Shown: one piece after another, positions 21,364 through 55,000 of the stretch
Position numbering within the stretch: position 1 is the stretch's first letter
How the letters are laid out: every line of letters starts with the position of its first letter
Assembly (NCBI GenBank): GCA_044892505.1
Contig: CM097882.1
Location: forward strand, 394,258,001-394,322,000
Direction of reading: 5' to 3'
DNA length: 64,000 bases
Source of the DNA: Schmidtea nova
Lineage: Eukaryota
Notes under the pieces: model-generated
Databases searched by the model: none
What the model saw: the letters and a program-made list of their open reading frames with translations, nothing else
Told to the model about the DNA's origin: nothing
Program-made: the position numbers and the translations under genes

Positions 21364-21858
21364 TAATTCTTTATTTTGACGAAGCTTCTTTTCCTCATAG
21401 CTTTTAGTTTCTAACTGTTTTCCACCGACCGCAACAGCTCGACGACCAGCTACAAATCCACTGGGATCGGTTTTGAATAACAGTGGCTTATACATCTCCT
21501 TATCATAAGAAAATGCGATCATTGAACAACCTAATGGCATTATCGCAGCTGATTGAGTGTACAATTGATTAATATCGGCAATACATCGACAAGTCATGTC
21601 ACAGGACATTTCGCATTTAAATCGTGCAGCTTCCATTTGTGCACGGAATACTTGCGATTCGCAATCAGGAATCATTCCGGTCCTAACGCAACCGGTACTT
21701 TCAGTTATGTTAAATAATCTTGTAGCTGAACTCTTTTCATTCATTTTATCTGAGACTTTTCTTTGTGTAGCAACTACGCCACAATCATTATCTCGAACAT
21801 CAACAGAAAGTAATCTATCCAACGCAATCGCTTTAAATGCATAGTCGACCTGAAATAA
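21364..21858 (-). pseudogene. PSMA6: Intronless truncated proteasome alpha-1 (PSMA6) fragment, copy A
   Basis: LFQVDYAFKAI...VRDNDCGVVATQRKVSDK...LFNITESTGCVRTGM...IADINQLYTQ...PLGCSMI...KTDPSG resembles human PSMA6; both termini are missing. Confidence 0.9.
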
Positions 21859-22381
21859 TGCGCCCAAAGACATTTCACTATTCATATTTAAAATTCAAAT
21901 CAACAATTCCAAGTCACGAGGATTGTATTCAATTCCACGAATTACAATTCCAAATTCAAAAAATCCAATCAGTTTCCAATAAATTCCAAACTGCAAAATT
22001 CGAAAAACCAAAAATCACATTAAGCAAAAATTTAAACTTAAAAGTTCCAAATCACGAAACTGAAAATTAAATCCACTCAGCAAAAAATTAAACTCAAAAA
22101 GTCCCCAAAATAAATCAATTAATCCAGTAAAACAACTCTACAAAAATCTTTATTAAATTTTTCAATATGAGAAAATGTTTTTTAATCACTTCCAAAAATT
22201 CGAAAATTCCAATGCATTTACATCAAACAATCCACCAATAAATAAATCCAACTAGCCCAGAAATAAATTCCAATTAATACCGATAAACAAAATAGCCCAG
22301 TTAAACGAATCAATGTCGTTATTAAGTTTTCAAAGAAAAACCAAAATGGATTTATTTTCTTCCAAGATAAAATTCCACCAC

Positions 22382-26087: not shown

Positions 26088-26419
26088 CGAGTAGTTGAAT
26101 TTGTCGTCGAATTAAAAATAAATTATCGAATTTTTGGAATTAATGTGGAATTTTTGAACTTAATTAAAAACATTTCAGATTTTGTTTAACTGATTTAATT
26201 AATTTAGTTTGGCGGAGTTTTGGATTTAAATGCTTTGGTACAATATGGCTGAATTGCATTGATTTGTTTAACTGGGTTATTGTTGTTTTTTGGATTAATG
26301 TAATTTATGAATTAATGTGTATTTTTGATTTCGGTTTCGTGTACCATTGGAAATAAACTTTGGAATTTGATTTATTGTAATTGACCGTTTTTGATTTAAA
26401 TTAAATGGAATTTCAATTT

Positions 26420-26905
26420 GTCGACTATGCATTTAAAGCGATTGCGTTGGATAGATTACTTTCTGTTGGTGTTCGAGATAATGATTGTGGCGTAGTTGCT
26501 ACACAAAGAAAAGTCCCAGATAAAATGAATGAAAAGAGTTCAGTTACAAGATTATTTAACATAACTGAAAGTACCGGTTGCGTTAGGACCGGAATGATTC
26601 CTGATTGCGAATCGCAAGTATTCCGTGCACAAATGGAAGCTGTACGATTTAAATGCGAAATGTCCTGTGACATGACTTGTCGATGTATTGCCGATATTAA
26701 TCAATTGTACACTCAATCATCTGCGATGATGCCATTAGGTTGTTCAATGATCGCATTTTCTTATGATAAGGAGATGGATAAGCCACTGTTATTCAAAACC
26801 GATCCCAGTGAATTTTTAGCTGGTCATCGAACTGTTGCGCTCGGTGGAAAACAGTTGGAAACTAAAGCTATGAGGAAAAGAAGCTTCGTAAAAATAAAGA
26901 ATTAA
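26420..26905 (+). pseudogene. PSMA6: Intronless truncated PSMA6 fragment, copy B (inverted relative to copy A)
   Basis: Near-identical to copy A; shares the small deletion at FKCEMSCD; 1-bp frameshift near the 3' end. Confidence 0.9.
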
Positions 26906-29795: not shown

Positions 29796-30585
29796 TTCTT
29801 TGAGGGAAAGTCCGCATATTTTGGGGATGGGAAAGGTGATGCATCGAGAAAGTGTGCGAACATGCGAGTATGTGTGCATTCGACGTCGGAAATAGGAGCG
29901 CAGTCTTTGCGAGTATTGCGGGAATTTGGACACTTCTTGAATTGAACAGCTCACAAGCACGTTTATTGAAAGAAAGGTGGCAGCTAAATAAATTCTATGT
30001 TCTTTCTGGAAAAGCGACTGATTGAATGAATAATAAAGTTCATAAGAACTAAAAATGTAATCTTTCAAAGATATACATTTGGTGATATATATGAGCATAT
30101 TAAATTGATGTTGTAATTTTTGTTTGTGTTTTTCGTTACGCTTTGAGTCTATATTGATTTGATTTATTAATAATAATTGGCAAGTTGCAAATTATATATT
30201 TATGTCCCGGTATGTAATGATTGATGGGTTCTACTTTTTATTATTGAGTGTAAAGTTAATATGTTGGATTTAATGATAGATTGATTTCTATGATACGATT
30301 TTTCTACTATTATTTGCCAAAAAGGACTTTTGAATTTAAAACTTAATTTATTATTTTGGGTAGACTTTGAATTAATTTTGAATTAATTTAGAATTAATTT
30401 AATTATGAATTTATGTGTTGTTTATTTAAATTAGTTTAATGTTGGAAAACTTAATTTTTTGAATTGTTATTTTTATTTTAGCTGAATAACTGTATGAATG
30501 ATGGTATCGTGGATATATTTGAATTGAATGTTTTTGTTATGAGCTTTTTTGGGATTTCTAGAGTGGAAGTTTTTCGGTCAAATTA

Positions 30586-31209
30586 ATGGTTGATTATAAT
30601 TATGTTATGAATGTTAATGAGGAAATTCGAAATGATGAATTGAATGAATTCATAGTCGAAGTGGATATTACGTCTTCGTTTGGAGTTCAAGAGAAGATAT
30701 TGAATGGTGGTGAGAGAATGGTTGCATCAATTCAATGGCCAACTCTGATTGAAATAACGAATTCATTGAATCAAAATGTGTGGAAAGATAAAAACATATT
30801 AATGTATAAAGCGAACAAGAGTGATATTATATATGGCTTACGTAGAATAAATGTTCCCAATGAATATGTGCACCAAGTTGTAAAACGAACATTTTCTGTA
30901 TTGAATAATAATAGTTGTGAAATATATGTTTCATCGCCATTATCGCTCAGCTGTAATCTGAAACAAGATCTCAATGATGTTTTCCCGATAATTCGATGCT
31001 TATTTGTTGGTGGAATTTCAAATTCGAACTTAAAATTGCTTGAGCCGCCAAATCTTTTGGTTGGATTACCGACACAAATATTGACTTACTGTGCATTACA
31101 CGGGTTGAATGTAATTATCAATGCTGCTTATTTTGTTATGGAAACGAATAAAGATTATATGGCCGTTCAATCGATGATTTTACAATTATTATTTTTTATG
31201 AATTTTTAG
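30586..31209 (+). CDS. PSMG1: Proteasome assembly chaperone 1 (PAC1)-like ORF, 207 aa, intronless; captured copy or genuine gene is unresolved
   Basis: LKLLEPPNLLVGLPTQILTYCALHGLNVII resembles human PLLEQPNIVHDLPAAVLSYCQVWKIPAIL; sits after the G/T-rich spacer like the other second cargos. Confidence 0.65.
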   Translation: MVDYNYVMNVNEEIRNDELNEFIVEVDITSSFGVQEKILNGGERMVASIQWPTLIEITNSLNQNVWKDKNILMYKANKSDIIYGLRRINVPNEYVHQVVKRTFSVLNNNSCEIYVSSPLSLSCNLKQDLNDVFPIIRCLFVGGISNSNLKLLEPPNLLVGLPTQILTYCALHGLNVIINAAYFVMETNKDYMAVQSMILQLLFFMNF

Positions 31210-34314: not shown

Positions 34315-35462
34315 CTTGATCCTGTAATAAATGTTATCTTATGTTACAATTATAAGTTTTCAATTATATTTTTTCATTGTTTGTTTGAATGAGGATACAG
34401 ATAAAAATAAAAGAGATCAAATAAATTACTTGATTAATAAATGAATCACGGCTTAGCGAAAATATTCAAATGGAAATCTTGTATTGAAAATCCACAGCGA
34501 TAGAGCGGTTAATTTAAAGGGACAAAAATGGGCAATAAACCTTCTATCGGTAGCCCTTGGACCCAGGAGATATTCGGTCAATCATAGTTTCGTATTAACG
34601 ACGCTCACTGATTGCGAATACCCACCCATTTGTTGCATTACCAACGTTACTTAGTGACGGGCAACAAGATGGTTATTACAATGTTTTGTATGTTGAGTTG
34701 TTGATACGAGCCATAGTAACGTCAAGGTCATATTGACGATCAACAACCCACCAATATAATAAATTGATTTTTAACTCAAGATAGTAAATAAATATAAAAT
34801 ATGCTAAAATAGCTTTAAAATATTGTTAAAAAAACAATTAATAATTATTACTCATTAACTGATCTTGATAAATGTCTTTGTGGCCATTAATTACAGACTG
34901 TTGATGTATTCTTGTTTATTCATATGTTAGAAAACACAATCTGTATCATGGAATAAATATTCTAAATTGAATTTTAGTATCAAAGATCATTAGTATAATT
35001 GAAAAAGCAGACATTTAAGTATTTGCATGATTATCGAGGTAAGTTTTGTAGAATTTCAAGTATTTTAGTATAATTATTAGTATCTTATTACGATATGTAA
35101 AAAGTATTGCAAAAGAATTATCTAGCTAATTAGGCAATAGCCAAAACGAAAAGAATCTTTCTAACTTTCTCTGATTGTTTGGCTAAAGTGTGAATAATAT
35201 TTTTGAAGGGAAGATGCTATTTTTGGTTACTATTATTGAATAGAAGCATTAGATACTATTATTATTTTTGATGTGACATTAATTATTAAGTTTCTGTTTG
35301 TTGATAAATTATTTGGTAGAAATTATAGAAAAATCACTTATTATCATCGAACTTTGTAAATTTAGAATCATTATTTTATCGTTAATATTATTATATTTCA
35401 TTACTTTAAAGGATGAAATGATTATTTTATTCGTAAATTTTGTGTTAAAACAATATGGATAA

Positions 35463-36056
35463 TGTAGGAATGCTAAAAGCAAATAAGATTTTATTAATAG
35501 AAATTGATCTCCAATTGACAAGTTGGTCTTTGGCAACCGGAAATCCTGACCGATGATAACAAGAGTTGAAATGAGCAAGCTCCATGACAGTCCGTATTGA
35601 TTGATTTCTGGTGATGGCGAATAATCGTTTAATCGAGATTGATTGTGATCCAATGTATTGATTTGTAGATTTTTTGAGTTATACATTTCAGATTTGTCTG
35701 GATAGTATATTAATATTGATCCAGTTGATGACAAGCATCTTCCAGTTTGTACGGCTTCTTTACGCATTCCAGCAGCGAAACATTTCTGCAATCTACGGAA
35801 CTGGCAATTGTTTCTTCTTTGAATATCGACTACACAATCTCCACTAGAGTAGAACTGATAATTGTTGTCATTTGATGAAAACGAGTCGCTGTGAATGTCT
35901 TGAGTGAATTGGCATATCGAATCATTGTTAACAGCTTGCATTTTTTTTGATCAGCGTGAAAAAGTGAAAATATATAAATATTAAAACAACATCTAATTTA
36001 ATCTATTTAATAATTAATTAATTTATAAAATTGGAAATTTAATCTAAGGCACTACA
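35463..36056 (-). repeat. 3' LTR (594 bp) containing a nuclear-receptor fragment
   Basis: tgtagtgcc...ttcctaca; three differences from the 5' LTR found by eye. Confidence 0.93.
35464..35941 (-). pseudogene. Nuclear hormone receptor fragment inside the 3' LTR (second zinc finger/T-box, hinge, start of LBD)
   Basis: CVVDIQRRNNCQFRRLQKCFAAGMRKEAVQ and LSIGDQFLLIKSY. Confidence 0.88.
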
Positions 36057-36120
36057 ATAGCCCCCGCCGAAGTACGCGGAGCGTCTCTAAGCTACAAAAT
36101 GGATTTGGGTGTTGGGTGAG

Positions 36121-38295
36121 TCACTGAAGGTGATAATCGGAGAGATATTGAGGGAGTTTACGTGTTCGCCTAGAAGAGAATGGCGGGTTGTCTTGAGAAA
36201 GTTGGGTATTTGTCTTTTCTGTAAGGATCTTCAGTTGTGCTGTGTCTTCTTGAATGTCTTCATCTATAGGATCTTCTTTCATGATATGGTAATTTGGTCG
36301 TTCATCATACTCAAGTGTGCAAAAGGATGGTTTTAATCTTGATAGGTTGACCATAATGTGATTGTTATCAATTTCTAGTTTCGCTGTGTTTTTGTATAGT
36401 TCGATGATGCGAAATGGGCCTTTGTATCTAGGTTTGAGGTTTGATGAGTCAATTGTCTTCATCCATGCGTGGGTGGCAGATGAAAGTGATTGTGGTATAT
36501 ACGGTTTGTATGATGTAGAATATGTGAAAGATGGATTTGTATCAAGACTCAAAAAATGATTGCGAGTGAGGTTGATTTCCTCTAGTGACGATTCGTTCTG
36601 TAGATCTATGAGTTCGTTGGGCATGGATGTGTTGGAACCGAACAAAAGTTGTGAAGGTGACACGCCACTTGAGCGGTTGGGAGTGTTGTGCCACCCGAGC
36701 AAGACGAATGGTAATGCTTTGGTCCACGAAGTTGTCGTTGAGAGTATTCTGAGAGATGATTTCAAAGTCCGGAGGGCGCGTTCCACAAGACCGTTTGTTT
36801 GTGGGTGATATGAGCTGGTACGTAAATGACTGATGCCGAGGCTGGTGGTCAGATGATCGAAAAGGTCTGATTCAAATTGTGTTCCTTGGTCTGTGATTAT
36901 GGCGGTTGGGATTCCATAACACGAAAACCAAGTGGATATTAAGGCGTGTGCAACCGTTTTTGCGGTGATGTCAGAAACTGGAATAGCCTCGAACCAGCGT
37001 GTTTTCCTATCGATCATTGTCAGTATATAGCAGAATCCATCGTATGAGGGGAGTTTGCCTACTAGGTCGATGTGGAGTATGTCGAATCTTGAACCAGTCG
37101 GGAATGGTGTGATTGGTGGTTTAGTATGTTTGTTCACTTTGTGTTGTTGGCAGCCTGTACATTCAGAGAGCCACTGTTTAACGTCTTTAAATAATGAGAA
37201 CCAAGTGACCTTTTGTCGTATGAGATGGTATGTGGACTTAATTCCTGGATGGTGTAGATTATGAATCGCGAAGAATGCTTCTTTCCTGAGTGACGAGTGC
37301 AAAATTGGTCTAAGAGTGTTTTTATACGTTGTGTCATAATGTATACCGTCTATTATCTCAAGCGAGTCTTTGAAGCGGGCGAGGTCAGCTGTCGTTGATG
37401 GAGTCGAACGGAGAATTTGTTGGGTGAAAACCGGTGTAGAGGTAATTGATGCAGCAATGTTTCTAGTAAGATAATCGGCGACCACATTATCTTTGCCCGA
37501 AACGTGAACAAATTTAATGTCAAAAGTTGATAGGTATGTTATCTGACGATGTACTCTGTTCGATGGGTCTTTCATGGTAAGGCAGTGGATGAGAGGTTTG
37601 TGGTCGGTGAAGATTGTAAATTGTCTTCCTTCTAAAATGTGACTAAAATGTTTGACTGCTAGAAAAATGGCAAGTAATTCTCTGTCGAATGCGCTGTACT
37701 TTGACTCTGCTAATGAAAATTTTCTCGAAAAAAATTCTATTGGTAGTGAGATTTTATCCATAATTTGGTGAAGGACTGCGCCTGCAGCAATATTTGATGC
37801 GTCAGTTGTCAGGGTGAATGGGAGGTCGTGACATGGGTAGTGAAGAGTGGTAATCTTGGTTAGAGCGTCTTTGACTTTGTTGAATGAGTCGCGTGTTGTG
37901 TCGGACCAATTGATGACGGAATTCTTTTTTCCTGTGTTCAGTGCTGAAAGAGGTGCTGTTATGTGAGATGCGTTTTTAATGAATCTATGGCAGAAGTTGA
38001 CGATGCCTAAAAAGCTACGTAGTTGTGTCACGGTGGTTGGCAGGGGAAAGCTGCGGATTACGTCAAGTCTTTCGGGGAAAGGTTCACAACCAGTAGATGA
38101 AAGTATATGGCCAAGGAATCTGACGCGTTCTTGAAACAAGCTACATTTGTTTACGTTTATCTGTAAGTTGTGACGGTTCAATATATCAAGGACCGTGTGT
38201 AAATCGTTTTTGTGGCTGTCTCGATCCGGGGACGCTATGATGATATCGTCAAGGTATGCGAAAGTGTTAGGGACATCGCGAAAAATTGTGTCCAT
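36121..38295 (-). CDS. Gypsy pol 3' part: RT C-terminal half (YLDD), RNase H, integrase (HHCC, DDE, GPF)
   Basis: FAYLDDIIIAS, TTDASNIAAGAVL, HHPGIK...CTGCQ, HIDLVG, ITDQGTQF, PQTNGLVER, RYKGPFRI. Confidence 0.95.
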   Translation of the reverse strand: MDTIFRDVPNTFAYLDDIIIASPDRDSHKNDLHTVLDILNRHNLQINVNKCSLFQERVRFLGHILSSTGCEPFPERLDVIRSFPLPTTVTQLRSFLGIVNFCHRFIKNASHITAPLSALNTGKKNSVINWSDTTRDSFNKVKDALTKITTLHYPCHDLPFTLTTDASNIAAGAVLHQIMDKISLPIEFFSRKFSLAESKYSAFDRELLAIFLAVKHFSHILEGRQFTIFTDHKPLIHCLTMKDPSNRVHRQITYLSTFDIKFVHVSGKDNVVADYLTRNIAASITSTPVFTQQILRSTPSTTADLARFKDSLEIIDGIHYDTTYKNTLRPILHSSLRKEAFFAIHNLHHPGIKSTYHLIRQKVTWFSLFKDVKQWLSECTGCQQHKVNKHTKPPITPFPTGSRFDILHIDLVGKLPSYDGFCYILTMIDRKTRWFEAIPVSDITAKTVAHALISTWFSCYGIPTAIITDQGTQFESDLFDHLTTSLGISHLRTSSYHPQTNGLVERALRTLKSSLRILSTTTSWTKALPFVLLGWHNTPNRSSGVSPSQLLFGSNTSMPNELIDLQNESSLEEINLTRNHFLSLDTNPSFTYSTSYKPYIPQSLSSATHAWMKTIDSSNLKPRYKGPFRIIELYKNTAKLEIDNNHIMVNLSRLKPSFCTLEYDERPNYHIMKEDPIDEDIQEDTAQLKILTEKTNTQLSQDNPPFSSRRTRKLPQYLSDYHLQ

Positions 38296-39340
38296 GAAAC
38301 ATTGTAATCACTGAGCTGCGTTTCTAAGACCAAAAGGCATGAACATGTATTCAAAATTCCCAAATGGTGTAGTGACAGCCGTTTTGTGGACGTCGTCCGT
38401 ATGGATGGGAAATTGGTGGTATGCTTTCGAGAGGTCTATAGTTGAGAACACTGTAGATTGTGAAAAGCGTGTTATTAAATCTCTAATGAGTGCATTGGGT
38501 AAGCGTCGTGGACTGTTACTTGGTTGAGCTGTCGATAATCTCCACAGGGTCTGAATGATCCGTCTTTTTTTGTTACTACGTGTATTGGCGAAGCCCATGG
38601 TGAAGATGAACGACGTAAAATGCCTACGTTTTCTAGACTGACAAATTCAGCTTTGACTGCGTCGAGTTTCGTGGAAGAGAGAGGTCTGGCTCGATTGTGT
38701 TGTGGTATGCATGGTAATGTGTGAATCTAGGGAGTCGATAGGGTAGTGGGTGGTATGGTATCGGATTTAGTGATGAGGTTTGGATATTTGATTGAAATTA
38801 ATTTGATCATGTCATCGATGGTATCTAGATTGGCTGATTGGTCGATGTCCAAAGTGGTTTTATCGTTTTCCATCGTAGAATCTTGATGAATCGAGTTGAG
38901 TTGTGTCGGTGTAGATGTCTGCGTTGAAATTGATGTTACATTTGACGATGAAATTGTCGGTATATTGGCATTGTCGTGTTTTACAGTGAACAACTTACGA
39001 TTTTTGCAATCTACCATGATGGATTCGTTGCTTAAAAAATCGGAGCCTAATATTGGGTGGATCGTGTCTGCTATGTGGAAGGTGTGAGTGAAAGTTGAGT
39101 TTAATGTTGGTATTGTGAATGAGAGTTTATTTGTTCCCAAAAATTGGATCGGTGTGCTGTTAGCGGCCAAGACAGTGAACGAAGATTTGAAGTCTGGTGT
39201 GAAAGTTGTTGGAAGGATTGAAAATGACGAGCCCGAATCTACGAGAAAATGAATTGATGAGCTGGAGTCGAAGTTTGCTTCAACAGTGAAGATATTGTTG
39301 ATCGCAAGGACGCTGCCTGAAAATCCAGGGTTGACAGACA
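38296..39340 (-). pseudogene. Gypsy protease and RT N-terminal half, frameshifted
   Basis: IHFLVDSGSSFSIL (protease); FSTIDLSKAYHQFPIH...KTAVTTPFGNFEYMFMPFGLRNAAQ; stops and frame changes relative to the pol ORF. Confidence 0.85.
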
Positions 39341-39483
39341 GCGGCGCTAGTTTTTTTTGGGAGAATTGAAATTGTTTTTGTCGTATGATTTATTTGAGGA
39401 ACGGTTTACAAAAGTGCAACCTGAAAGGCATTTTTGTGCGTGTATACCGAAGATATTGTGATAGATGCAAATAGGAATGATCC

Positions 39484-40312
39484 TCAAAGTGGAAGAGTGT
39501 TTAGCCATGAACATCCTATATGGCATGTTCTTGCGTCGGATGAGAATTTCCTGTGAAAAAAACAAGTCAGAGTGGGAAATGAATTCGGTTTATCGTTTCT
39601 TTGGGTGTGTGTAGTTACCTGAGAGGAGTTGAGTATCGCGTCGACTGTTTTTGTCAGAGAAGATATCTGTTCCTGTAATGAAGGGTCGGAAACTGATGCG
39701 ATGGTAGTTGGTGCGTTTCGGATGGGGGGTCGAGTAACCAACTTATCAGCAATTTTTGCAAGTTGAAAAGGATCATCGGAATCGACAACGAGGAGTGAGG
39801 TCTGGATGTGATATGGAAGAGCTGTTAAAAATTGATGGCATAGGAGAGCAGTGTTTTTTGATAAACCGGTGTGGACGGCCTCGAGTTCGCGTACTAGTTG
39901 AGATAAAAAGGATGATGGGGGTTGACCGGCGTATGGGGTGGGTTTTGATAACTTTTCGATCGCTGAAGTGCGCGTGGGTGAATATTTTTTTTATGACCGC
40001 TTTGATTGATTCATAAGGGGTTTCTGAGTTTAATGCGTCAGCTATTTGTGAGCCTAATTCTGACATTAACTCGTCGGGTATTGCATATAGCAGAAGATCT
40101 TGCCTAGACTTGGGATTGGCTCTAGTGCGCGATTCAAAAATGCGGAACCAAGATGATGGTGTGCCGTCTGCGTCTAAAAATATCAGTTGAGTGCGACCTA
40201 TGGACGTGGGAGGGTTATGGTCATTGTTAGTTTTGGCACCGCCTCTTGCCGCATGAAGAGATTTATTATTGCGTTTGTTGGGACTGAAAGAGGATCTGTG
40301 ATGGGAACTCCG
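39484..40312 (-). pseudogene. Gypsy gag, frameshifted
   Basis: PSSWFRIFES, TPYESIKAVI and CFFHRKFSSDARTC motifs, same Gag family as the 15.8-kb remnant. Confidence 0.8.
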
Positions 40313-40630
40313 TTATTTAAAATAAAGAAGTCGTTGTGTTCTATTAAAAAAAACGTTTAATATCGTTAAAAAGTTTGTCGTGGTAATTTTAACTGTGTGA
40401 ATAATAGTTTTGTGGCGTACAGTGATGTTGAGTAAGCCGTCATGAAGGGTAAATGGTTGTGAACAGGTAGGGGAAACTGTTGTAGTTTTGGTTATAGGAC
40501 TATGAAAATTATTATTAAAATAATTATTAAAATTTTTATTGAGTATATTATTAAAATTATTATTAATATAAATGAAGTAATTAGATGAATTTAAATATTC
40601 ACATAATAAATTCAAAAATCTTACGTTTGT

Positions 40631-40644
40631 CACTTCTGACACCA
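40631..40644 (-). promoter_or_regulatory. Primer-binding site TGGTGTCAGAAGTG (tRNA-Leu type)
   Basis: Begins 2 nt after the CA end of the 5' LTR. Confidence 0.85.
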
Positions 40645-40646
40645 AT

Positions 40647-41240
40647 TGTAGGAATGCTAAAAGCAAATAAGATTTTATTAATAGAAATTGATCTCCAATT
40701 GACAAGTTGGTCTTTGGCAACCAGAAATCCTGACCGATGATAACAAGAGTTGAAATGAGCAAGCTCCATGACAGTCCGTATTGATTGATTTCTGGTGATG
40801 GCGAATAATCGTTTAATCGAGATTGATTGTGATCCAATGTATTGATTTGTAGATTTTTTGAGTTATACATTTCAGATTTGTCTGGATAGTATATTAATAT
40901 TGATCCAGTTGATGACAAGCATCTTCCAGTTTGTACGGCTTCTTTACGCATTCCAGCAGCGAAACATTTCTGCAATCTACGGAACTGGCAATTGTTTCTT
41001 CTTTGAATATCGACGACACAATCTCCACTAGAGTAGAACTGATAATTGTTGTCATTTGATGAAAACGAGTCGCTGTGAATGTCTTGAGTGAATTGGCATA
41101 TCGAATCATTGTTAACAGCTTGCATTTTTTTTGATCAGCGTGAAAAAGTGAAAATATGTAAATATTAAAACAACATCTAATTTAATCTATTTAATAATTA
41201 ATTAATTTATAAAATTGGAAATTTAATCTAAGGCACTACA
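40647..41240 (-). repeat. 5' LTR (594 bp) containing the same nuclear-receptor fragment (40648-41125)
   Basis: TG...CA ends; same length as the 3' LTR; TSD immediately outside. Confidence 0.93.
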
Positions 41241-41951
41241 GATAATAAAACTATAAATTGTTTATAATTAGAATGATCCACTGTGAAGTTAACATTTCAT
41301 TTATTTTGATTTTTTAAATCTTTATAAATTTTCGAATTAATGACAATTTATATATTTAATTAAAAATTATAGTAATCTCATCATGGAAAAGGCACTACAA
41401 AGTGTAAATAAACGAATGAACCGTTTCAGAGAAAGAAATGGAATATTAGAAAAGAAAAATGGCATTTGGACAAACTCATTCAACGCGGCAAAACAATGGA
41501 ATCGGCCTGGTTCTGTACGGAGAAAATAAAGCGCGCACACCTTAATTTTCGTCCTTTGGTCACAATTATTAAAAAACACTAATAAATGAAATATTAACAC
41601 TATTTAATGCAAAGGCCATACTATCAAATAAAAAACCCAATTATAATCAATGTCGATAAAAAATCTGTCTTAAGAAATGTTTACAATTAACTTTGTGAAC
41701 GATAAACCAATAGCAAGTTGCAATCAGTTTTATAAATCTTTATATAAAAGAATATATTTATTAATTAAATATAAAATTTTAAACATAAATATTTGATAAT
41801 GGAATAAAAGTTGTTTAAACTGTTTATTTATTGATATTGATTACTCGGTGATATATTTCTGATTTGCAAATGAAACTTTTATTTTGGCTATTAATTATAA
41901 AGGTAAGAATTGTTTTTTTTTGGAAAACAATTGGTTCATTGTGAATTTCAG

Positions 41952-42222: not shown

Positions 42223-42859
42223 GTGAGAGAATGTTTTGAATTTCTCAATTATCTTAAAATACAAATATATATTTCGAAATTACAGCGAGCGATAGATGAC
42301 AAAAATAAACGATATCAATTAGAATAAAGTTCTTTAGTTTAATTATTTTTTAATTCTTCTATCGTCTTAATCAAATTACTTTTAAGTTACGATATTTTAT
42401 ATTACTTGCTTAAAATGCTGAAAATATTAAGTACTTTATAAAATACTCACTTCATTCTATTTTAGTTTTTCTTTCCGTAATTTAAAGACTTTTTGACATC
42501 GTATTTAAATTCTTGATTTCCTCATGAACCTCTTATTACGTGTTTTTGTTAACAAATACTGTAATAGATGCCTTTTTGGTATGTGTTTAATGATAAATAC
42601 TTTGAATTTCTTCAGAAACGGATTCCAAATTTCCGCCAATCTTAAATATTTTAGAGATTAGCACAAACACTTTGAGTGCATAAGTTGGTATGGTTTTGGT
42701 GATGGTCACCATATTAGAAGATTCATAAACCATACAAGTTAGTAGAGTAGGGGGAGCGCCCAAGAACAGGAACAGACCCCCCCTCCCCCCTCCCCCCACC
42801 CCCCCCCAAAATTTTTTTTAATTTTTAATTTTGTTTAAATGAAGTGAATTTTTTAATTT

Positions 42860-44030
42860 TGATTTTTTGTTTAAATGAAGTCAATTTAATTTTATTATTT
42901 TGTTTAAATGAAGACTTTATTTATTTTTATTTTTATTTTTATTTTTTTTTATTTATTTTTATTTATTTTTATTAATTTTTATTTTTATTTATTTTTATTA
43001 ATTTATTTTTAATAATTTATATGTATTAATTTATTTTTATTAATTTTTATTAATTTATTTTTATTAATTTATTTTTAATTTATTTTTTAATAATTTATTT
43101 GTATTAATTTATTTTTATTAATTTATTTTTATTAATTTATTTGTATTAATTTTTATTAATTTATTTTTAATTTATTTTTAATTTATTTTTATTAATTTAT
43201 TTGTATTAATTTATTTTTATTAATTTATTTTTAATTTATTTTTAATAATTTATATGTATTAATTTATTTTTATTAATTTTTATTAATTTATTTTTATTAA
43301 TTTATTTTTTAATAATTTATTTGTATTAATTTATTTGTATTAATTTATTTGTATTAATTTATTTTTATTAATTTATTTGTATTAATTTTTATTAATTTAT
43401 TTTTATTAATTTATTTTTAATAATTTATTTGTATTAATTTATTTGTATTAATTTATTTTTATTAATTTATTTTTATTAATTTATTTTTTAATAATTTATT
43501 TGTATTAATTTATTTTTATTAATTTATTTTTAATTTATTTTTAATAATTTATATGTATTAATTTATTTTTAATTTATTTTTTAATAATTTATTTGTATTA
43601 ATTTATTTGTATTAATTTATTTTTATTAATTTATTTGTATTAATTTATTTTTATTAATTTATTTGTATTAATTTTTATTAATTAATTTTTATTAATTTAT
43701 TTTTAATAATTTATTTGTATTAATTTATTTGTATTAATTTATTTTTATTAATTTATTTTTATTAATTTATTTTTTAATAATTTATTTGTATTAATTTATT
43801 TTTATTAATTTATTTTTAATTTATTTTTAATAATTTATATGTATTAATTTATTTTTAATTTATTTTTTAATAATTTATTTGTATTAATTTATTTGTATTA
43901 ATTTATTTTTATTAATTTATTTTTTAATAATTTATTTGTATTAATTTATTTTTATTAATTTATTTTTATTAATTTTTATTAATTTATTTTAATTATTTAT
44001 TTTAATTTTTATTTAAATAATTTTAATTTT
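42860..44030. repeat. AT-rich 11-12-bp minisatellite (tattaatttat-ttg/ttt); mirrored at about 54520-55640
   Basis: Direct reading. Confidence 0.9.
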
Positions 44031-44039
44031 TTGATCTGG

Positions 44040-45240
44040 TTATTTTTGTAAAGGATTTTTACTCTGGTAATTTTGTATAGGAATTTCTACTCCGAGATTT
44101 TCTATGGCAAAAAGGGACTCTGGATTTTTTGTACAGGGAATTTTTATACATGAAATTTTGGACTGGTATTTTTGTATAGGATTTTGGTCTGGTTATTTTG
44201 AATAGGATTTTCAACTCCCATATTTTTCTAGGGCAAAAATAGACTCTGGTAATTTTGAACTAAATTTTTTATGGTAAATAAAAACACGTGTAAATTTTTT
44301 AAACTATTAAAATACATTGAAATTATTTTGAATAGGATTTTCAACTCCCATATTTTTCTCGGGCAAAAAGGGACTCTGGTAATTTTGAACTGAAATTTTA
44401 ATGGTAAATAAAAAACACGTGTAAATTTTTTAAACAAGTAAATTATCATTAAAGTATTTTGTATAAGATTTTCAACTCCCAGATATTTTCTAGGGCAAAA
44501 AAGGGACTCTGGTAATTTTGAACTAAATTTTTTATGGTAAATAAAAACACGTGTAAATTTTTAAACTATTAAAATACATTGAAATTATTTTGAATAGGAT
44601 TTTCAACTCCCATATTTTTCTAGAGCAAAAATAGACTCTGATAATTTTGAACTGTAATTTTAATGGTAAATAAAAAACACGTGTAAATTTTTTAAACTAG
44701 TAAAATACATTGAAATTATTTTGAATAGGATTTTCAATTCCCAGATTTTTCTTCAGGCAAAAATAGACTCTGGTAATTTTGAATATGATTTTTAGTCTGG
44801 TATTTTTGAAAATAATATTTTGGTCGGCGAAAATCAAAAAATTAAAAAGTGGTCAGAATTCAATAATTTTTATACCAATCTACTGAGAATTGAATGGGGA
44901 ACAAAAAAGGTTCAAAAAGTAAAAACATGAAATTTTGACTTTTCCGACCCAATTTTACACGTAAAAAGGGTCAACTCGGAGAATTTCCAAAAAATCAAAA
45001 ATGCTCAGAATCAAATAATTTTTATACCAATCTACTGAGAATCGAATGGCGAACAAAAAAGGTTCAAAAAGTAAAAACATGAAATTTTGACTTTTCCGAT
45101 CCAATTTTTACACGTAAAAAGAGTCAACTCGGGGAAATTCCAAAAATTAAAAAGTTGTCAGAATTCAATAATTTTTATACCAATCTACTGAGAATTGAAT
45201 GGTGAACAAAAAAGGTCAAAAAATTAAAATCATGAAAAAC
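44040..45240. repeat. Tandem arrays of about 131-bp (about 5 copies) and about 152-bp (3 copies) units; mirrored at about 53310-54510
   Basis: ggattttcaactccca recurs about every 131 bp; ataccaatctactgaga recurs at 44872, 45024 and 45177. Confidence 0.88.
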
Positions 45241-46010
45241 CAAAATTTTATACGTAAAATTACAGTCTCAGTAAAAAAGGGTAAAATATATAAAAACGTG
45301 GAAATATTTAAAATAAAAATTTTTAAACTAAATAATTAAATCTAAATAAATTTATGATAATTAAATAAAAAAGTAAATAAATTCTATACGAATTTCAAAA
45401 CTCAATAAATAATTCACTCATTATTTTGTATTTAATTTATCAAGTAAAATGGTACATTAAATAAAAGCATGGAAATAATAAGTAAATTAAACTTAGAATT
45501 TAAAAATAATTTGTACTGGATTTATGAAAAATATCAAAGTAAATAAATTAAAGATAGAATTTTAAAAATAATTATGAATTTAATGATAAATAGAAATATA
45601 AGTAAATTAAGAATAAAAAAGTAAATTAAGAAAGACGTGAGTTTTAATGTCATAATTTAAAAAAGAATTGCTTTTAAAGGAACTGTTTAAGGTAATATTT
45701 GAAAAATGTGAGAATAATTAATTATTTTTGAAATTTTTTAAAGTAAAATTTATTAACAATAAGGTCAATGTAGAATTTTTTAGCAATAAAATCAATGAAA
45801 ATTTTTTAATTAATAAATACAAATCTAATTGTTTTTCAATATGATGTTTTTTAAGGAAATGATCAAATGTAGTAAATAAAACACATGTAAATATTGAATT
45901 TATTTAGAATAAAAATAGTTATTAAACAAGAGTTTTTACAATTTTGTATACTAAGTTAAAAAAAAAATATCAATTAATGACATAAATTTTTAAAAATAAA
46001 CGTAATAATT

Positions 46011-46147
46011 NNNNNNNNNNNNNNNNNNNNNNNNNNNNNNNNNNNNNNNNNNNNNNNNNNNNNNNNNNNNNNNNNNNNNNNNNNNNNNNNNNNNNNNNNN
46101 NNNNNNNNNNNNNNNNNNNNNNNNNNNNNNNNNNNNNNNNNNNNNNN
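46011..46147. other. 137-N gap, mirrored by a 137-N gap at 52405-52541
   Basis: N runs at symmetric positions. Confidence 0.99.
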
Positions 46148-46299
46148 CTAAGTACCAGCAATAAACCGATCAAATAACTAATAATCTCATTACACACACA
46201 AATAAACCACTGACTAGTAACTGATCAAATGCCAACTGACTCTATCCACAAATCAACAATCGACTAGTTACTTACAAGTTACCAACTGATTCTATATAT

Positions 46300-47110
46300 T
46301 AACCAACTAGGAAATTGTTCCATGTGTCAATCACTTCCTATTGCCTATATATCAAATAATCCAATCCCCTTAGTTAACAAATAGTACAATTCCTTACTAA
46401 CCAACTAGTTCTATACATTAACCAACTAACTTTATTCACAAATCACCAACCAACTAACTAACTAACCAGCAACCACTTCCTTACTAACCAACTAGTTCTA
46501 TACATCAACCAACTAACTCTTCACATTAACCAAGTAACTAACTAACTAACTAACCAGCAATCAATTCATTACTAACCAACTAGTTCTATACATTAACCAA
46601 CCAACTAACTAACTAACCAGCAACCACTTCCTTACTAACCAACTAGTTCTATACATCAACCAACTAACTCTTCACATTAACCAAGTAACTAACTAACTAA
46701 CTAACCAGCAATCAATTCATTACTAACCAACTAGTTCTATACATTAACCAAGTAACTAACTAACTAACTAACCAGCAACCACTTCCTTACTAACCAACTA
46801 GTTCTATACATTAACCAACTAACTTTATCTATACTAACCAACCAACTACACTAACCAACTAACTAGCTATACATACTAATCTCTTACTAACCAACTAGTT
46901 CTATTCATTATTCTTGTACCAACCAACCAACTACATTAACCAACTAACTAACTAACTAACTAACCAATTCCTTACTTCCCAACTAACTCTTCTCATTAAC
47001 CAACTAACTATTCATAAATCAACAACAGACTAGTTAATTATTAAATATCAATTGATTCTATCCACAATCTACTAGTTAAATCAACTAATTGGATACCAAC
47101 TGACTCTATA
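46300..47110. repeat. AACC/AACT-rich composite tandem repeat; mirrored at about 51440-52250
   Basis: Recurrent cttactaaccaactagttctatacattaaccaactaact. Confidence 0.88.
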
Positions 47111-48549
47111 TATTAAACAAATAAATCTTCACTCTAAGGAAATTGTTCCACGTATCAATTAACTCTTCGCATTAATTAGATAAGATATTTAAAACTAACT
47201 GATTCTAAATATCGTGTCATAAAATTAAATTTATTACTTTGAATAATTTAATTAATCTTTAGTTGATTATCAGTTTTCAAAAAGGTATACTAATATCTAC
47301 GTAGTTAAAATGAAATTTTTTATTAATTAAAGTTATTAAAATTTCGAATATATTTAAAATGCAAATGACTTTTAATTCAAAGCTCTATTGAAATCATTGT
47401 TCATTTATTTCTTCACTTGATAACTAACATGTATAAGTAATTTAAAAATCATTATAAAAAACTCTGTTAACTAGGTAAACATATTAAAATGATAAATAAG
47501 CAACTAATGAAATATTTTTTGTTACTTCCTATTACATGTTCAATTTATTTCTTCACTCTGATAATTTAAAAGAATAAATAAATAAATATTCAATTAATTC
47601 TAAAAATAATAAAAATTAATTCAAATTTCAATACAAATATTTATTTATTAAACATTTTTATTAACCATGCTAAACAGTACTACCAAGTGTTTTTGTTATT
47701 GGATTCTAGTATCAGATTCTATTATTTCCAATTCACATCAACATTGACGATATGTTTTTCATCAATAGCGATGGATAATAAAATCCCATTGGTTCAAACA
47801 TGTGTATTTTATCGGGTTTCACATAAACTGCAATCATGAAAATATAATTTGAATCTTTTACAGGTAAAAACCATCACAAAAGAGGTTCTGCTACCAAAGG
47901 TTCTGCTAGAAAGGTTCTGCTACGTGATAAATTTAATGAAAATGTAACAATAATAGTATATAAGTGAATATACAATATGAATCTTTTACAGGTAAAAACC
48001 ATCACAAAAGAGGTTCTGTTACCAAAGGTTCTGCTAGAAAGGTTCTGATACTGAATATAATTGTTAATAATGAATTTTACCAAAATATTTATTAATTTTT
48101 CATTTTAAATATTTTTAGTGAATTATTAATATTAATATTTTTATTATTTTTATTATTAACACGTAATAATTTTGCAACATTAAATCTGTTTCGAATGTTC
48201 ATTATGAAATTTATAAAAGTAGATATAATAAGAAAAAATAATCAATTTATTCACAAAGGGCAAATTATGTTAAACGAAATCTGATTGGTCAATTTGAATT
48301 ATGAAAACATATATATATATATATAAATTGATTAAAAATTACAGATTTCATTAAAAATGCATCAACTTAAAAGTAAGTTTAATTAATTTTGAATGATTAT
48401 TTTTTAATATTTTATTCTTGAATCTTCGAACAAAAATATGTTTAAACAAGAAGTAATGAAAATTATTCTTAATGATGTTGTCAAACCTGTTTTGAAAAAT
48501 TATAGAAACAAATATATGTGAATAAAATTTATTTATCAAATCTTCTCTT

Positions 48550-49025
48550 TTCATTTCATTTTATTTTATTTTTTGTTTTGGTTAATTTTAATTTTTAATA
48601 ACAATTATTTTTTGTGTTAAATTTATTACCAAATATTTAAAATCGATTAGTTTTTTATAAAAATAAAAATAATTAATTTTTTATTTTATTTTTTGTTTTG
48701 GTTAATTTTAATTTTTAATAACAATTATTTTTTGTGTTAAATTTATTACCAATTATTTAAATTTGATTAGTTTTTATTAAATAAAAATAATTAATTTTTT
48801 ATTTTATTTAATTTTTTGTTTTGCTTAACTTAAATTTTTAATAACAAATATTTTTTTTTGTGTTAAATTTATTAAAATAAAAATAATTAATTTTTTTTTT
48901 ATTTTATTTAATTTTTTGTTTTGGTTAATTTAAATTTTTAATAACAATTATTTTTTGTGTTAAATTTATTACCAAATATTTAAAATCGATTAGTTTTTTA
49001 TTAAAATAAAAATAATTAATTTTAT
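48550..49025. repeat. About 120-125-bp AT-rich tandem units; the right arm (49277-49995) has about two more units
   Basis: Mirror-coordinate sum shifts from 98301 at the centre to 98550 beyond the array. Confidence 0.85.
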
Positions 49026-52000
49026 TATCATAATTATTCTAAATTGATTTTGTTTTATTAATTGATTATACGTTTAAAATTAAAATTCAAAATAATTTTC
49101 TTTAATATTTTCCCGGCAACAATAATTAATTCGGAATTTGATATATATTCGAATATATATCAAATTCCGAATTAATTATTGTTGCCGGGAAAATATTAAA
49201 GAAAATTATTTTGAATTTTAATTTTAAACGTATAATCAATTAATAAAACAAAATCAATTTAGAATAATTATGATAATAAAATTAATTATTTTTATTTTAA
49301 TAAAAAACTAATCGATTTTAAATATTTGGTAATAAATTTAACACAAAAAATAATTGTTATTAAAAATTTAAATTAACCAAAACAAAAAATTAAATAAAAT
49401 AAAAAAAAAATTAATTATTTTTATTTTAATAAATTTAACACAAAAAAAAATATTTGTTATTAAAAATTTAAGTTAAGCAAAACAAAAAATTAAATAAAAT
49501 AAAAAATTAATTATTTTTATTTAATAAAAACTAATCAAATTTAAATAATTGGTAATAAATTTAACACAAAAAATAATTGTTATTAAAAATTAAAATTAAC
49601 CAAAACAAAAAATAAAATAAAAAATTAATTATTTTTATTTTTATAAAAAACTAATCGATTTTAAATATTTGGTAATAAATTTAACACAAAAAATAATTGT
49701 TATTAAAAATTAAAATTAACCAAAACAAAAAATAAAATAAAATAAAAAATTAATTATTTTTATTTAATAAAAAACTAATCAATTTTAAATAATTGGTAAT
49801 AAATTTAACACAAAAAATAATTGTTATTAAAAATTAAAATTAACCAAAACAAAAAATAAAATAAAATAAAAAATTAATTATTTTTATTTTAATAAAAAAC
49901 TAATCGATTTTAAATATTTGGTAATAAATTTAACACAAAAAATAATTGTTATTAAAAATTTAAATTAACCAAAACAAAAAATAAAATAAAATGAAATGAA
50001 AAGAGAAGATTTGATAAATAAATTTTATTCACATATATTTGTTTCTATAATTTTTCAAAACAGGTTTGACAACATCATTAAGAATAATTTTCATTACTTC
50101 TTGTTTAAACATATTTTTGTTCGAAGATTCAAGAATAAAATATTAAAAAATAATCATTCAAAATTAATTAAACTTACTTTTAAGTTGATGCATTTTTAAT
50201 GAAATCTGTAATTTTTAATCAATTTATATATATATATATATATGTTTTCATAATTCAAATTGACCAATCAGATTTCGTTTAACATAATTTGCCCTTTGTG
50301 AATAAATTGATTATTTTTTCTTATTATATCTACTTTTATAAATTTCATAATGAACATTCGAAACAGATTTAATGTTGCAAAATTATTACGTGTTAATAAT
50401 AAAAATAATAAAAATATTAATATTAATAATTCACTAAAAATATTTAAAATGAAAAATTAATAAATATTTTGGTAAAATTCATTATTAACAATTATATTCA
50501 GTATCAGAACCTTTCTAGCAGAACCTTTGGTAACAGAACCTCTTTTGTGATGGTTTTTACCTGTAAAAGATTCATATTGTATATTCACTTATATACTATT
50601 ATTGTTACATTTTCATTAAATTTATCACGTAGCAGAACCTTTCTAGCAGAACCTTTGGTAGCAGAACCTCTTTTGTGATGGTTTTTACCTGTAAAAGATT
50701 CAAATTATATTTTCATGATTGCAGTTTATGTGAAACCCGATAAAATACACATGTTTGAACCAATGGGATTTTATTATCCATCGCTATTGATGAAAAACAT
50801 ATCGTCAATGTTGATGTGAATTGGAAATAATAGAATCTGATACTAGAATCCAATAACAAAAACACTTGGTAGTACTGTTTAGCATGGTTAATAAAAATGT
50901 TTAATAAATAAATATTTGTATTGAAATTTGAATTAATTTTTATTATTTTTAGAATTAATTGAATATTTATTTATTTATTCTTTTAAATTATCAGAGTGAA
51001 GAAATAAATTGAACATGTAATAGGAAGTAACAAAAAATATTTCATTAGTTGCTTATTTATCATTTTAATATGTTTACCTAGTTAACAGAGTTTTTTATAA
51101 TGATTTTTAAATTACTTATACATGTTAGTTATCAAGTGAAGAAATAAATGAACAATGATTTCAATAGAGCTTTGAATTAAAAGTCATTTGCATTTTAAAT
51201 ATATTCGAAATTTTAATAACTTTAATTAATAAAAAATTTCATTTTAACTACGTAGATATTAGTATACCTTTTTGAAAACTGATAATCAACTAAAGATTAA
51301 TTAAATTATTCAAAGTAATAAATTTAATTTTATGACACGATATTTAGAATCAGTTAGTTTTAAATATCTTATCTAATTAATGCGAAGAGTTAATTGATAC
51401 GTGGAACAATTTCCTTAGAGTGAAGATTTATTTGTTTAATATATAGAGTCAGTTGGTATCCAATTAGTTGATTTAACTAGTAGATTGTGGATAGAATCAA
51501 TTGATATTTAATAATTAACTAGTCTGTTGTTGATTTATGAATAGTTAGTTGGTTAATGAGAAGAGTTAGTTGGGAAGTAAGGAATTGGTTAGTTAGTTAG
51601 TTAGTTAGTTGGTTAATGTAGTTGGTTGGTTGGTACAAGAATAATGAATAGAACTAGTTGGTTAGTAAGAGATTAGTATGTATAGCTAGTTAGTTGGTTA
51701 GTGTAGTTGGTTGGTTAGTATAGATAAAGTTAGTTGGTTAATGTATAGAACTAGTTGGTTAGTAAGGAAGTGGTTGCTGGTTAGTTAGTTAGTTAGTTAC
51801 TTGGTTAATGTATAGAACTAGTTGGTTAGTAATGAATTGATTGCTGGTTAGTTAGTTAGTTAGTTACTTGGTTAATGTGAAGAGTTAGTTGGTTGATGTA
51901 TAGAACTAGTTGGTTAGTAAGGAAGTGGTTGCTGGTTAGTTAGTTAGTTGGTTGGTTAATGTATAGAACTAGTTGGTTAGTAATGAATTGATTGCTGGTT

Positions 52001-55000
52001 AGTTAGTTAGTTAGTTACTTGGTTAATGTGAAGAGTTAGTTGGTTGATGTATAGAACTAGTTGGTTAGTAAGGAAGTGGTTGCTGGTTAGTTAGTTAGTT
52101 GGTTGGTGATTTGTGAATAAAGTTAGTTGGTTAATGTATAGAACTAGTTGGTTAGTAAGGAATTGTACTATTTGTTAACTAAGGGGATTGGATTATTTGA
52201 TATATAGGCAATAGGAAGTGATTGACACATGGAACAATTTCCTAGTTGGTTAATATATAGAATCAGTTGGTAACTTGTAAGTAACTAGTCGATTGTTGAT
52301 TTGTGGATAGAGTCAGTTGGCATTTGATCAGTTACTAGTCAGTGGTTTATTTGTGTGTGTAATGAGATTATTAGTTATTTGATCGGTTTATTGCTGGTAC
52401 TTAGNNNNNNNNNNNNNNNNNNNNNNNNNNNNNNNNNNNNNNNNNNNNNNNNNNNNNNNNNNNNNNNNNNNNNNNNNNNNNNNNNNNNNNNNNNNNNNNN
52501 NNNNNNNNNNNNNNNNNNNNNNNNNNNNNNNNNNNNNNNNNAATTATTACGTTTATTTTTAAAAATTTATGTCATTAATTGATATTTTTTTTTTAACTTA
52601 GTATACAAAATTGTAAAAACTCTTGTTTAATAACTATTTTTATTCTAAATAAATTCAATATTTACATGTGTTTTATTTACTACATTTGATCATTTCCTTA
52701 AAAAACATCATATTGAAAAACAATTAGATTTGTATTTATTAATTAAAAAATTTTCATTGATTTTATTGCTAAAAAATTCTACATTGACCTTATTGTTAAT
52801 AAATTTTACTTTAAAAAATTTCAAAAATAATTAATTATTCTCACATTTTTCAAATATTACCTTAAACAGTTCCTTTAAAAGCAATTCTTTTTTAAATTAT
52901 GACATTAAAACTCACGTCTTTCTTAATTTACTTTTTTATTCTTAATTTACTTATATTTCTATTTATCATTAAATTCATAATTATTTTTAAAATTCTATCT
53001 TTAATTTATTTACTTTGATATTTTTCATAAATCCAGTACAAATTATTTTTAAATTCTAAGTTTAATTTACTTATTATTTCCATGCTTTTATTTAATGTAC
53101 CATTTTACTTGATAAATTAAATACAAAATAATGAGTGAATTATTTATTGAGTTTTGAAATTCGTATAGAATTTATTTACTTTTTTATTTAATTATCATAA
53201 ATTTATTTAGATTTAATTATTTAGTTTAAAAATTTTTATTTTAAATATTTCCACGTTTTTATATATTTTACCCTTTTTTACTGAGACTGTAATTTTACGT
53301 ATAAAATTTTGGTTTTTCATGATTTTAATTTTTTGACCTTTTTTGTTCACCATTCAATTCTCAGTAGATTGGTATAAAAATTATTGAATTCTGACAACTT
53401 TTTAATTTTTGGAATTTCCCCGAGTTGACTCTTTTTACGTGTAAAAATTGGATCGGAAAAGTCAAAATTTCATGTTTTTACTTTTTGAACCTTTTTTGTT
53501 CGCCATTCGATTCTCAGTAGATTGGTATAAAAATTATTTGATTCTGAGCATTTTTGATTTTTTGGAAATTCTCCGAGTTGACCCTTTTTACGTGTAAAAT
53601 TGGGTCGGAAAAGTCAAAATTTCATGTTTTTACTTTTTGAACCTATTTTGTTCCCCATTCAATTCTCAGTAGATTGGTATAAAAATTATTGAATTCTGAC
53701 CACTTTTTAATTTTTTGATTTTCGCCGACCAAAATATTATTTTCAAAAATACCAGACTAAAAATCATATTCAAAATTACCAGAGTCTATTTTTGCCTGAA
53801 GAAAATTTGGGAATTGAAAATCCTATTCAAAATAATTTCAATGTATTTTACTAGTTTAAAAAATTTACACGTGTTTTTTATTTACCATTAAAATTACAGT
53901 TCAAAATTATCAGAGTCTATTTTTGCTCTAGAAAAATATGGGAGTTGAAAATCCTATTCAAAATAATTTCAATGTATTTTAATAGTTTAAAAATTTACAC
54001 GTGTTTTTATTTACCATAAAAAATTTAGTTCAAAATTACCAGAGTCCCTTTTTTGCCCTAGAAAATATCTGGGAGTTGAAAATCTTATACAAAATACTTT
54101 AATGATAATTTACTTGTTTAAAAAATTTACACGTGTTTTTTATTTACCATTAAAATTTCAGTTCAAAATTACCAGAGTCCCTTTTTGCCCGAGAAAAATA
54201 TGGGAGTTGAAAATCCTATTCAAAATAATTTCAATGTATTTTAATAGTTTAAAAAATTTACACGTGTTTTTATTTACCATAAAAAATTTAGTTCAAAATT
54301 ACCAGAGTCTATTTTTGCCCTAGAAAAATATGGGAGTTGAAAATCCTATTCAAAATAACCAGACCAAAATCCTATACAAAAATACCAGTCCAAAATTTCA
54401 TGTATAAAAATTCCCTGTACAAAAAATCCAGAGTCCCTTTTTGCCATAGAAAATCTCGGAGTAGAAATTCCTATACAAAATTACCAGAGTAAAAATCCTT
54501 TACAAAAATAACCAGATCAAAAAATTAAAATTATTTAAATAAAAATTAAAATAAATAATTAAAATAAATTAATAAAAATTAATAAAAATAAATTAATAAA
54601 AATAAATTAATACAAATAAATTATTAAAAAATAAATTAATAAAAATAAATTAATACAAATAAATTAATACAAATAAATTATTAAAAAATAAATTAAAAAT
54701 AAATTAATACATATAAATTATTAAAAATAAATTAAAAATAAATTAATAAAAATAAATTAATACAAATAAATTATTAAAAAATAAATTAATAAAAATAAAT
54801 TAATAAAAATAAATTAATACAAATAAATTAATACAAATAAATTATTAAAAATAAATTAATAAAAATTAATTAATAAAAATTAATACAAATAAATTAATAA
54901 AAATAAATTAATACAAATAAATTAATAAAAATAAATTAATACAAATAAATTAATACAAATAAATTATTAAAAAATAAATTAAAAATAAATTAATACATAT

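Follow-up and report, generated by a model that had tools for sequence, protein, structure and literature searches.

A spliced COUP-TF-like host mRNA fragment in the long terminal repeats of a Schmidtea nova gypsy element, probably read in frame with gag

How does a coding fragment of a nuclear receptor come to lie inside both long terminal repeats (LTRs) of a retrotransposon, and why does its frame stay open there? The question is raised by a gypsy element of ~5.8 kb that occupies positions 35463-41240, minus strand, of a 64,000-nt stretch of Schmidtea nova DNA (GenBank assembly GCA_044892505.1, contig CM097882.1), hereafter the window. With moderate confidence, we favor the reading that a piece of a spliced COUP-TF-like host mRNA forms the core of the LTR and is likely translated as the N-terminal part of open reading frame 1 (ORF1), in frame with gag. 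The two LTRs (5′ LTR, 40647-41240; 3′ LTR, 35463-36056) are 594 nt each, start with TGTAG, end with CTACA, and differ from each other at three positions. GATAA flanks the element on both sides as a 5-bp target-site duplication (TSD; 41241-41245 upstream and 35458-35462 downstream). A primer-binding site (PBS)-type sequence, TGGTGTCAGAAGTG (40631-40644), lies 2 nt inward of the 5′ LTR, and a G-rich polypurine-type tract (PPT; 36057-36068) lies just before the 3′ LTR. With direct TG...CA LTRs, a TSD, a PBS, a PPT, and a pol gene in the order protease, reverse transcriptase, RNase H, integrase, the element belongs to Ty3/gypsy.

Each LTR contains a 159-codon frame that begins with an ATG at LTR base 116 (window position 41125 in the 5′ LTR) and is stop-free to the LTR end; a stop-free frame of at least 159 codons occurred in none of 2000 shuffles of the LTR. 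The Pfam profile zf-C4 matches this frame over model positions 33-70 (E 8e-8). Approximately 460 of the 594 LTR bases are host receptor gene sequence, leaving ~115-155 nt at the start and 16 nt at the end that derive from the element. The captured piece (40663-41125 in the 5′ LTR; 35479-35941 in the 3′ LTR, where the frame exits into flanking DNA) extends from the host ATG to codon 219 of 430, inside exon 2, and comprises a shortened A/B region, a damaged finger 2, the T-box, the hinge, and the beginning of the ligand-binding domain (LBD). A working receptor is not encoded by this piece: finger 1, including the P-box, is deleted, finger 2 has lost two of its four cysteines (one replaced by F, the other by R), and the LBD is truncated at its start. 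Only three of the nine cysteines of the DNA-binding domain (DBD) are retained in the window copy. The LBD part alone rises above threshold on no profile (E 0.88), its identity being given by DNA identity to the host gene, and a search of the LTR frame against longer proteins returned 227 candidates, none at E 0.001. The original prediction, made from the letters of the window, had described TG/CA-bounded 594-bp LTRs with a PBS and a 5-bp TSD, each holding an ATG-initiated frame of roughly 160 codons, and these features were all recovered. Its second zinc finger is likewise present, with two altered cysteines in place of the single Cys-to-Arg change that it reported, and its LBD assignment holds for the origin of the sequence but receives no support from profiles. 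The continuation of the frame into the leader and gag and the existence of a second subfamily, both described below, were not part of that prediction.

The parent of the LTR piece was reached through a genome search with zf-C4 (2,656 candidates, 150 scored), followed by alignment of 30 loci. It is a four-exon COUP-TF-like gene on contig C2, where two copies lie in an inverted duplication. Exon 1 closes with a GT donor and is followed by a GT-AG intron of 1,491 nt; the LTR sequence runs straight over the junction, which falls near 40939 in the 5′ LTR. Because the LTR sequence skips this intron, the piece was captured from mRNA, and the donor of the LTR is a spliced host mRNA. The four phase-compatible exons specify a product of 430 amino acids with a COUP-type DBD and an LBD in a single frame. 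Over 355 aligned columns, it shares 33% identity with an NR2F protein (E 2e-51); its best PDB match is the COUP-TF1 DBD (E 3e-29), and its named hits are mostly NR2F; orthology to NR2F/COUP-TF is by best hit only. The inverted duplication that holds the gene (240,862,000-240,908,000 of contig C2) has arms that are 96-99.8% identical, and the second gene copy differs in exon 1 by a 6-nt deletion and five substitutions. The predicted capture of mRNA into the LTR is thus borne out by a parent gene and a skipped intron, and the receptor piece in the window is no native exon of a resident gene.

The arrangement is not peculiar to this locus. An LTR search of the genome (1.25 Gb) gave 1,666 candidates, a term used here for first-look search counts and not copy numbers; all of the best 40 scored at full length and at least 99%. 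A search with the leader gave 859 candidates. Thirty LTR loci comprise 15 solo LTRs with their own 5-bp TSDs, seven 5′ LTRs, seven 3′ LTRs, and one LTR in the middle of a tandem, and the TSD, PBS, and PPT recur at these other loci. The view that receptor-fragment units spread with the LTR and persist in solo LTRs therefore stands, half of the loci being solo, but the units do not carry a working receptor. Most of the rows listed for the zf-C4 genome search are confined to the part of the model found in the LTR, and all five such loci checked are LTR copies.

The copies form a graded series of loss. Old copies of subfamily A (826 nt) keep both fingers; outside the two host genes, a whole finger 1 is found in three of the best 40 finger-1 hits, at 96-98% identity to the host over that stretch. 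Mid A copies (684-688 nt) have lost 141 nt, which removes finger 1, and young A copies, the type in the window, have lost a further 54 nt and two cysteines relative to mid A. Subfamily B (~760 nt) has the same junctions as A and deletions of 18 and 51 nt. It is represented by 1,001 candidates, the best 40 of which scored 95-96% besides the query, and consists mostly of solo LTRs. B is ~73% identical to the host (161 of 588 bases differ), and its copies retain five of the nine DBD cysteines. Tandem arrays with shared LTRs also occur (L016-L018, L040-L042, and L047-L048), and in L016 and L017, neighboring units are identical in leader and gag except for the length of one homopolymer run.

Retention of the frame is non-random. 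The four lineage-wide deletions (141, 54, 18, and 51 nt) are all in frame, as compared to 5 of 15 private indels (one-sided P 0.033; L119 was excluded for a 1.1-kb insert and poor alignment, L120 and L130 are the same locus, and so are L126 and L133). In B, 153 substitutions relative to the host are common to two copies and none creates a stop, whereas random placement gives a mean of 7.7 stops and a stop-free outcome in only 1 of 5000 simulations (P ~2e-4). The receptor itself shows no corresponding constraint, as 18-19 of the 45 retained DBD codons in B are changed. The dN/dS ratio relative to the host is ~0.4 in both A and B, below the range simulated for B (0.48-1.08). These data suggest that the target of selection would likely be the open frame rather than receptor function.

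The open frame extends beyond the LTR. In the window copy, the 5′ LTR frame crosses the PBS and continues into an AT-rich leader for a total of 270 codons (40313-41125), stopping ahead of gag (39347-40254). The leader stays open for 101 codons in the frame of the host ATG, as do 5 of 5000 dinucleotide shuffles (P 0.001). A homopolymer run of copy-variable length (40346-40353) sets the phase of the LTR-headed frame relative to gag. Exact sites in the genome, sorted by run length, include 145 in phase with gag and 189 out of phase by one base. Eight of the first 12 in-phase A sites are open from the host ATG into gag. Among ten 5′ LTRs of B, seven keep the leader, and five of these seven are in phase. 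The run-length classes are not products of misassembly, since both occur at similar depth in short-read contigs (8,238 and 8,790 in X1), with a third class at about half. These contigs come from four runs of one study, are of unstated kind, and have transposase-adapter ends in three runs; their depth is silent on expression and transcription starts. Among 50 copies placed on a tree, run length changed 13-14 times, with no more clustering of either main class than shuffled labels show (54 and 118 of 500); slippage therefore recurs. A further count of 5 in-phase copies among 35 (38 rows, three without the ATG motif) was set aside because its loci had been ranked by likeness to the out-of-phase window copy.

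Several observations weigh against translation of the receptor piece as part of ORF1. The out-of-phase class is the larger one, and the window copy itself belongs to it; the tree of run lengths gives no parental state. Of the seven leader-bearing B copies, six carry copy-specific lesions and just one has no stop at all between ATG and gag. The leader has 10 nonsynonymous and two synonymous shared differences, and thus no amino-acid conservation. The gag gene has an ATG of its own, presumably at the position where related Gags begin, so a fusion is not needed a priori. For young A, the stop test is not significant (49 substitutions, P 0.065), and the dN/dS of ~0.4 is not assignable to the element branch without an outgroup, as part of the synonymous excess possibly arose on the host branch. 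When LTR ends lacking the receptor piece were sought ahead of the PBS, the three matches all proved to be damaged receptor-bearing copies.

The main rival to an ORF1 fusion is a separately translated upstream ORF (~260 codons, terminating ahead of gag) that would tune Gag synthesis by re-initiation or by a -1 slip on the U run, with in-phase copies as by-products of slippage. It accommodates the commonest class (189 sites). A 260-codon frame is present in most of the copies compared, one full mid A copy is also out of phase, and a slippery-type heptamer closes the run immediately ahead of the stop, gag being in frame -1. However, the sequence that follows the run showed no stable stimulatory structure (z -0.59), most B copies (5/7) are in phase, and the in-phase frame stays open for the 30 further codons that lead to the gag ATG, leading us to regard a separate upstream frame as unlikely. 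We consider it less likely still that the piece is a neutral passenger, kept only as LTR sequence (a spacer and a polyadenylation signal) and open by chance. The receptor domains indeed lack amino-acid conservation, the hexamer AATAAA alone could account for keeping the 3′ part, and the young A stop test falls short of significance. Chance openness is nevertheless hard to reconcile with the stop-free set of shared B substitutions, the four in-frame shared deletions, and the open leader. A cellular source of constraint did not emerge either: a search for an intron-bearing B-like gene gave no matches with one mismatch allowed, which as an exact-pattern test is weak, and a last-exon search returned nothing beyond the pair of host genes and a dispersed repeat distinct from the element.

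Two further explanations appear very improbable, and to about the same degree. A receptor-derived regulator, comparable to a dominant-negative v-ErbA and expressed from many LTRs, is suggested by the kept frame and by the three old copies in which both fingers are present and the finger-1 stretch matches the host at 96-98% identity. Both amplified subfamilies, however, have lost DNA-binding cysteines or finger 1, and the frames of solo LTRs stop at random stops in the flanking DNA. The LBD also ends at its signature motif, before the helices that serve dimerization and activation function 2 (AF-2). Alternatively, the piece could lie in U3, the LTR part upstream of the transcription start, with transcription beginning near the far LTR end and the frame read from the 3′ end of the RNA through a spliced message. 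Coding sequence in U3 is read through a spliced message in the sag gene of mouse mammary tumor virus (MMTV) and the nef gene of human immunodeficiency virus (HIV). The AATAAA lies only 28 nt from the LTR end, which fits a short R region, and the borders of U3, R, and U5 are not settable without RNA (PMC3601003). Within the LTR, however, the frame never meets a stop, and that it remains open over the PBS and leader makes sense only for a transcript of the 5′ LTR; the sole TATAAA also lies upstream of the ATG.

How the piece could have entered and been kept can be outlined for the favored ORF1 fusion. During minus-strand synthesis, reverse transcriptase would have jumped from the LTR end to a host mRNA packaged alongside and then returned, so that host sequence took the place of the element's R/U5 region. 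An A-rich stretch lies ahead of the ATG in host and LTR alike and may represent microsimilarity at the switch point; no receptor-free element was found for comparison. Transcription would start upstream of the host ATG, in keeping with a candidate TATA box, TATAAA, at LTR base 30 (41206-41211), the only one in the LTR and present in three of four LTR starts compared, so that translation of the genomic RNA would meet the host ATG before any other start codon. Copies that keep phase would make a protein of receptor remnant, leader, and Gag, and lineages with an open frame would multiply. Out-of-phase copies would be born by repeated slippage and moved in trans or by frameshifting or re-initiation. 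Host codons may also provide the polyadenylation signal. The sole AATAAA of the LTR (40674-40679) corresponds to ATTAAA in the host and was reached from it through different substitutions in A and B; among the LTRs of animal Metaviridae, no motif is better conserved than AATAAA (PMC3601003). The full scenario, in which the host mRNA became a working R/U5 that supplied a start codon, a Gag N-terminus, and a polyadenylation signal, was later re-swapped, and seeded thousands of receptor fragments, is held more tentatively than the ORF1 fusion itself, at slightly less than even weight.

Whether the host gene was captured once or twice is addressed by comparing A and B. Their LTR starts are 94% identical, and their dS is 0.05-0.09 in leader and gag and 0.10 in pol. 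For the receptor piece, dS is 0.84 and dN is 0.30. When sites are classed by shared base, 142 unite A with the host, seven unite A with B, five unite B with the host, and three differ in all. We consider it probable that the host gene entered twice, with the old piece decaying in B while A was founded later by re-capture through homology. A single capture with much faster change in B is the less likely alternative, and the two-capture case is weakened by the faster divergence of the LTR than of the interior within A (89% versus 95-96%).

Another part of the same host gene is also found dispersed in the genome. A separate repeat holds the last exon and 3′ untranslated region, at 67-96% amino-acid identity and often broken, at six loci (L162-L167) and about six more, without a match to the gypsy element; a B-type solo LTR is inserted near it at L163. 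A second mobile family thus appears to have taken another part of the receptor gene.

The remainder of the element in the window is degraded. Its gag is broken near 40250 and near 39985, matches DUF7041 weakly, and carries a CHCC motif, C-x2-H-x9-C-x3-C (39511-39564), with a spacing known from CsRn1. The PBS is one that we take to be of the tRNA-Leu type; a search for a primer tRNA end matching it gave no matches, and the window itself holds no tRNA. At the gag-pol junction, a -1 frameshift site (A AAA AAC) with a downstream hairpin is predicted (39303-39358; -16 kcal/mol, z -1.73). The pol region (36121-39389) is split into several frames (near 38727, 38475-38646, and 38308) and matches RVT_1, RT_RNaseH, Integrase_H2C2, and rve in order, with a weak protease (E 0.08). 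One copy at another locus has no stop between the host ATG and the end of the stretch read, its frame passing through gag and entering pol; the gag-pol run is therefore also length-variable. Single-frame variants are known for CsRn1-like elements (PMC2582038).

Elsewhere in the window, two inverted, uninterrupted proteasome-subunit frames (21238-21894, minus strand, and 26405-26905, plus strand) are 97% identical and 4.6 kb apart; they are possibly the other mRNA capture that the original prediction mentioned. A 215-codon frame (30562-31209, plus strand) matches the proteasome assembly chaperone PAC1 weakly (E 1e-4, below the cut-off). A giant palindrome (42741-55813) has 3,594-nt arms that are 100% complementary, a perfect 597-nt central hairpin (48554-49747), and AT-rich minisatellites outside, and is either a foldback-like element or an assembly artifact. 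Transposase remnants of the Tc5/CENP-B and hAT types lie at 1788-2306 and 61631-62744, respectively.

Captured genes have been described as internal, low-copy cargo of LTR elements; here, one makes up most of the LTR of a successful family, and the parent gene and the intermediate stages are all present in one assembly. That the frame is kept and the function lost points to a directly testable reason for retention. In practice, receptor counts and the design of RNA interference constructs or probes against the host gene could be misled by LTR copies. Moreover, the thousands of copies, at 89-93% identity to the host mRNA, might supply small RNAs that silence a developmental regulator.

Parts of this arrangement have counterparts in other systems. 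GAG of Ty1 starts in the 5′ LTR, with ORF1 crossing the PBS, and v-erbA lies between the LTRs of its virus. To our knowledge, neither Ty1 nor MMTV sag nor HIV nef has an identifiable spliced, intron-bearing host parent in the same genome. In avian erythroblastosis virus, a host nuclear receptor was likewise captured by a retroelement and fused to Gag, but v-ErbA follows gag and still binds DNA, whereas the remnant described here is without fingers and, positioned in the LTR, comes ahead of gag (PMC2194726). The element shares with the CsRn1 clade a CHCC Gag motif, a similar size, and a predicted -1 gag-pol overlap, as in 9 of 14 AgCR elements (PMC2582038). Its PBS, TGGTGTCAGAAGTG, is unlike the tRNA-Trp-type PBS described there, and its TSD is 5 bp as compared to 4 bp in PwRn1; because the PBS is not of the tRNA-Trp type, we do not file the element in this clade.

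The closest parallels concern the route of capture. In LTR-mediated retroposition in animals and in maize Bs1, a spliced, partial host mRNA is likewise joined to an element by template switching, replaces part of it, and is retroposed again (PMC5131818). Those retrocopies are internal, flanked by element sequence, and low in copy number (one to five for Bs1), and captures have been described downstream of pol or between the LTRs (PMC6431247). Here, a parent gene with the intron removed is found as in such retrocopies, but the piece lies inside both LTRs and in solo LTRs instead of between LTRs; it forms the LTR core of a gag-pol family (1,666 and 1,001 candidates) and can be in frame with gag. 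Host-gene sequence that serves an element from within its LTR is also known from Cassandra TRIMs (miniature retrotransposons with terminal repeats), non-autonomous plant elements in which the internal promoter of 5S rRNA is kept in step with the host gene (10.1101/2023.07.14.548913); the present case involves a protein-coding mRNA and an element with gag and pol. BARE-2 similarly acquired foreign LTR sequence by abnormal template switching and founded a subfamily, its donor being the retrotransposon Wis-2 (PMC13317346), whereas the donor here is a host mRNA. A literature search, covering mainly papers open without subscription, revealed no gypsy LTR described as containing a protein-coding mRNA, whether from a nuclear receptor or from another gene. 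The LTR-mediated route of capture is known; what appears to be new is the placement of a host mRNA in the LTR of a gypsy element.

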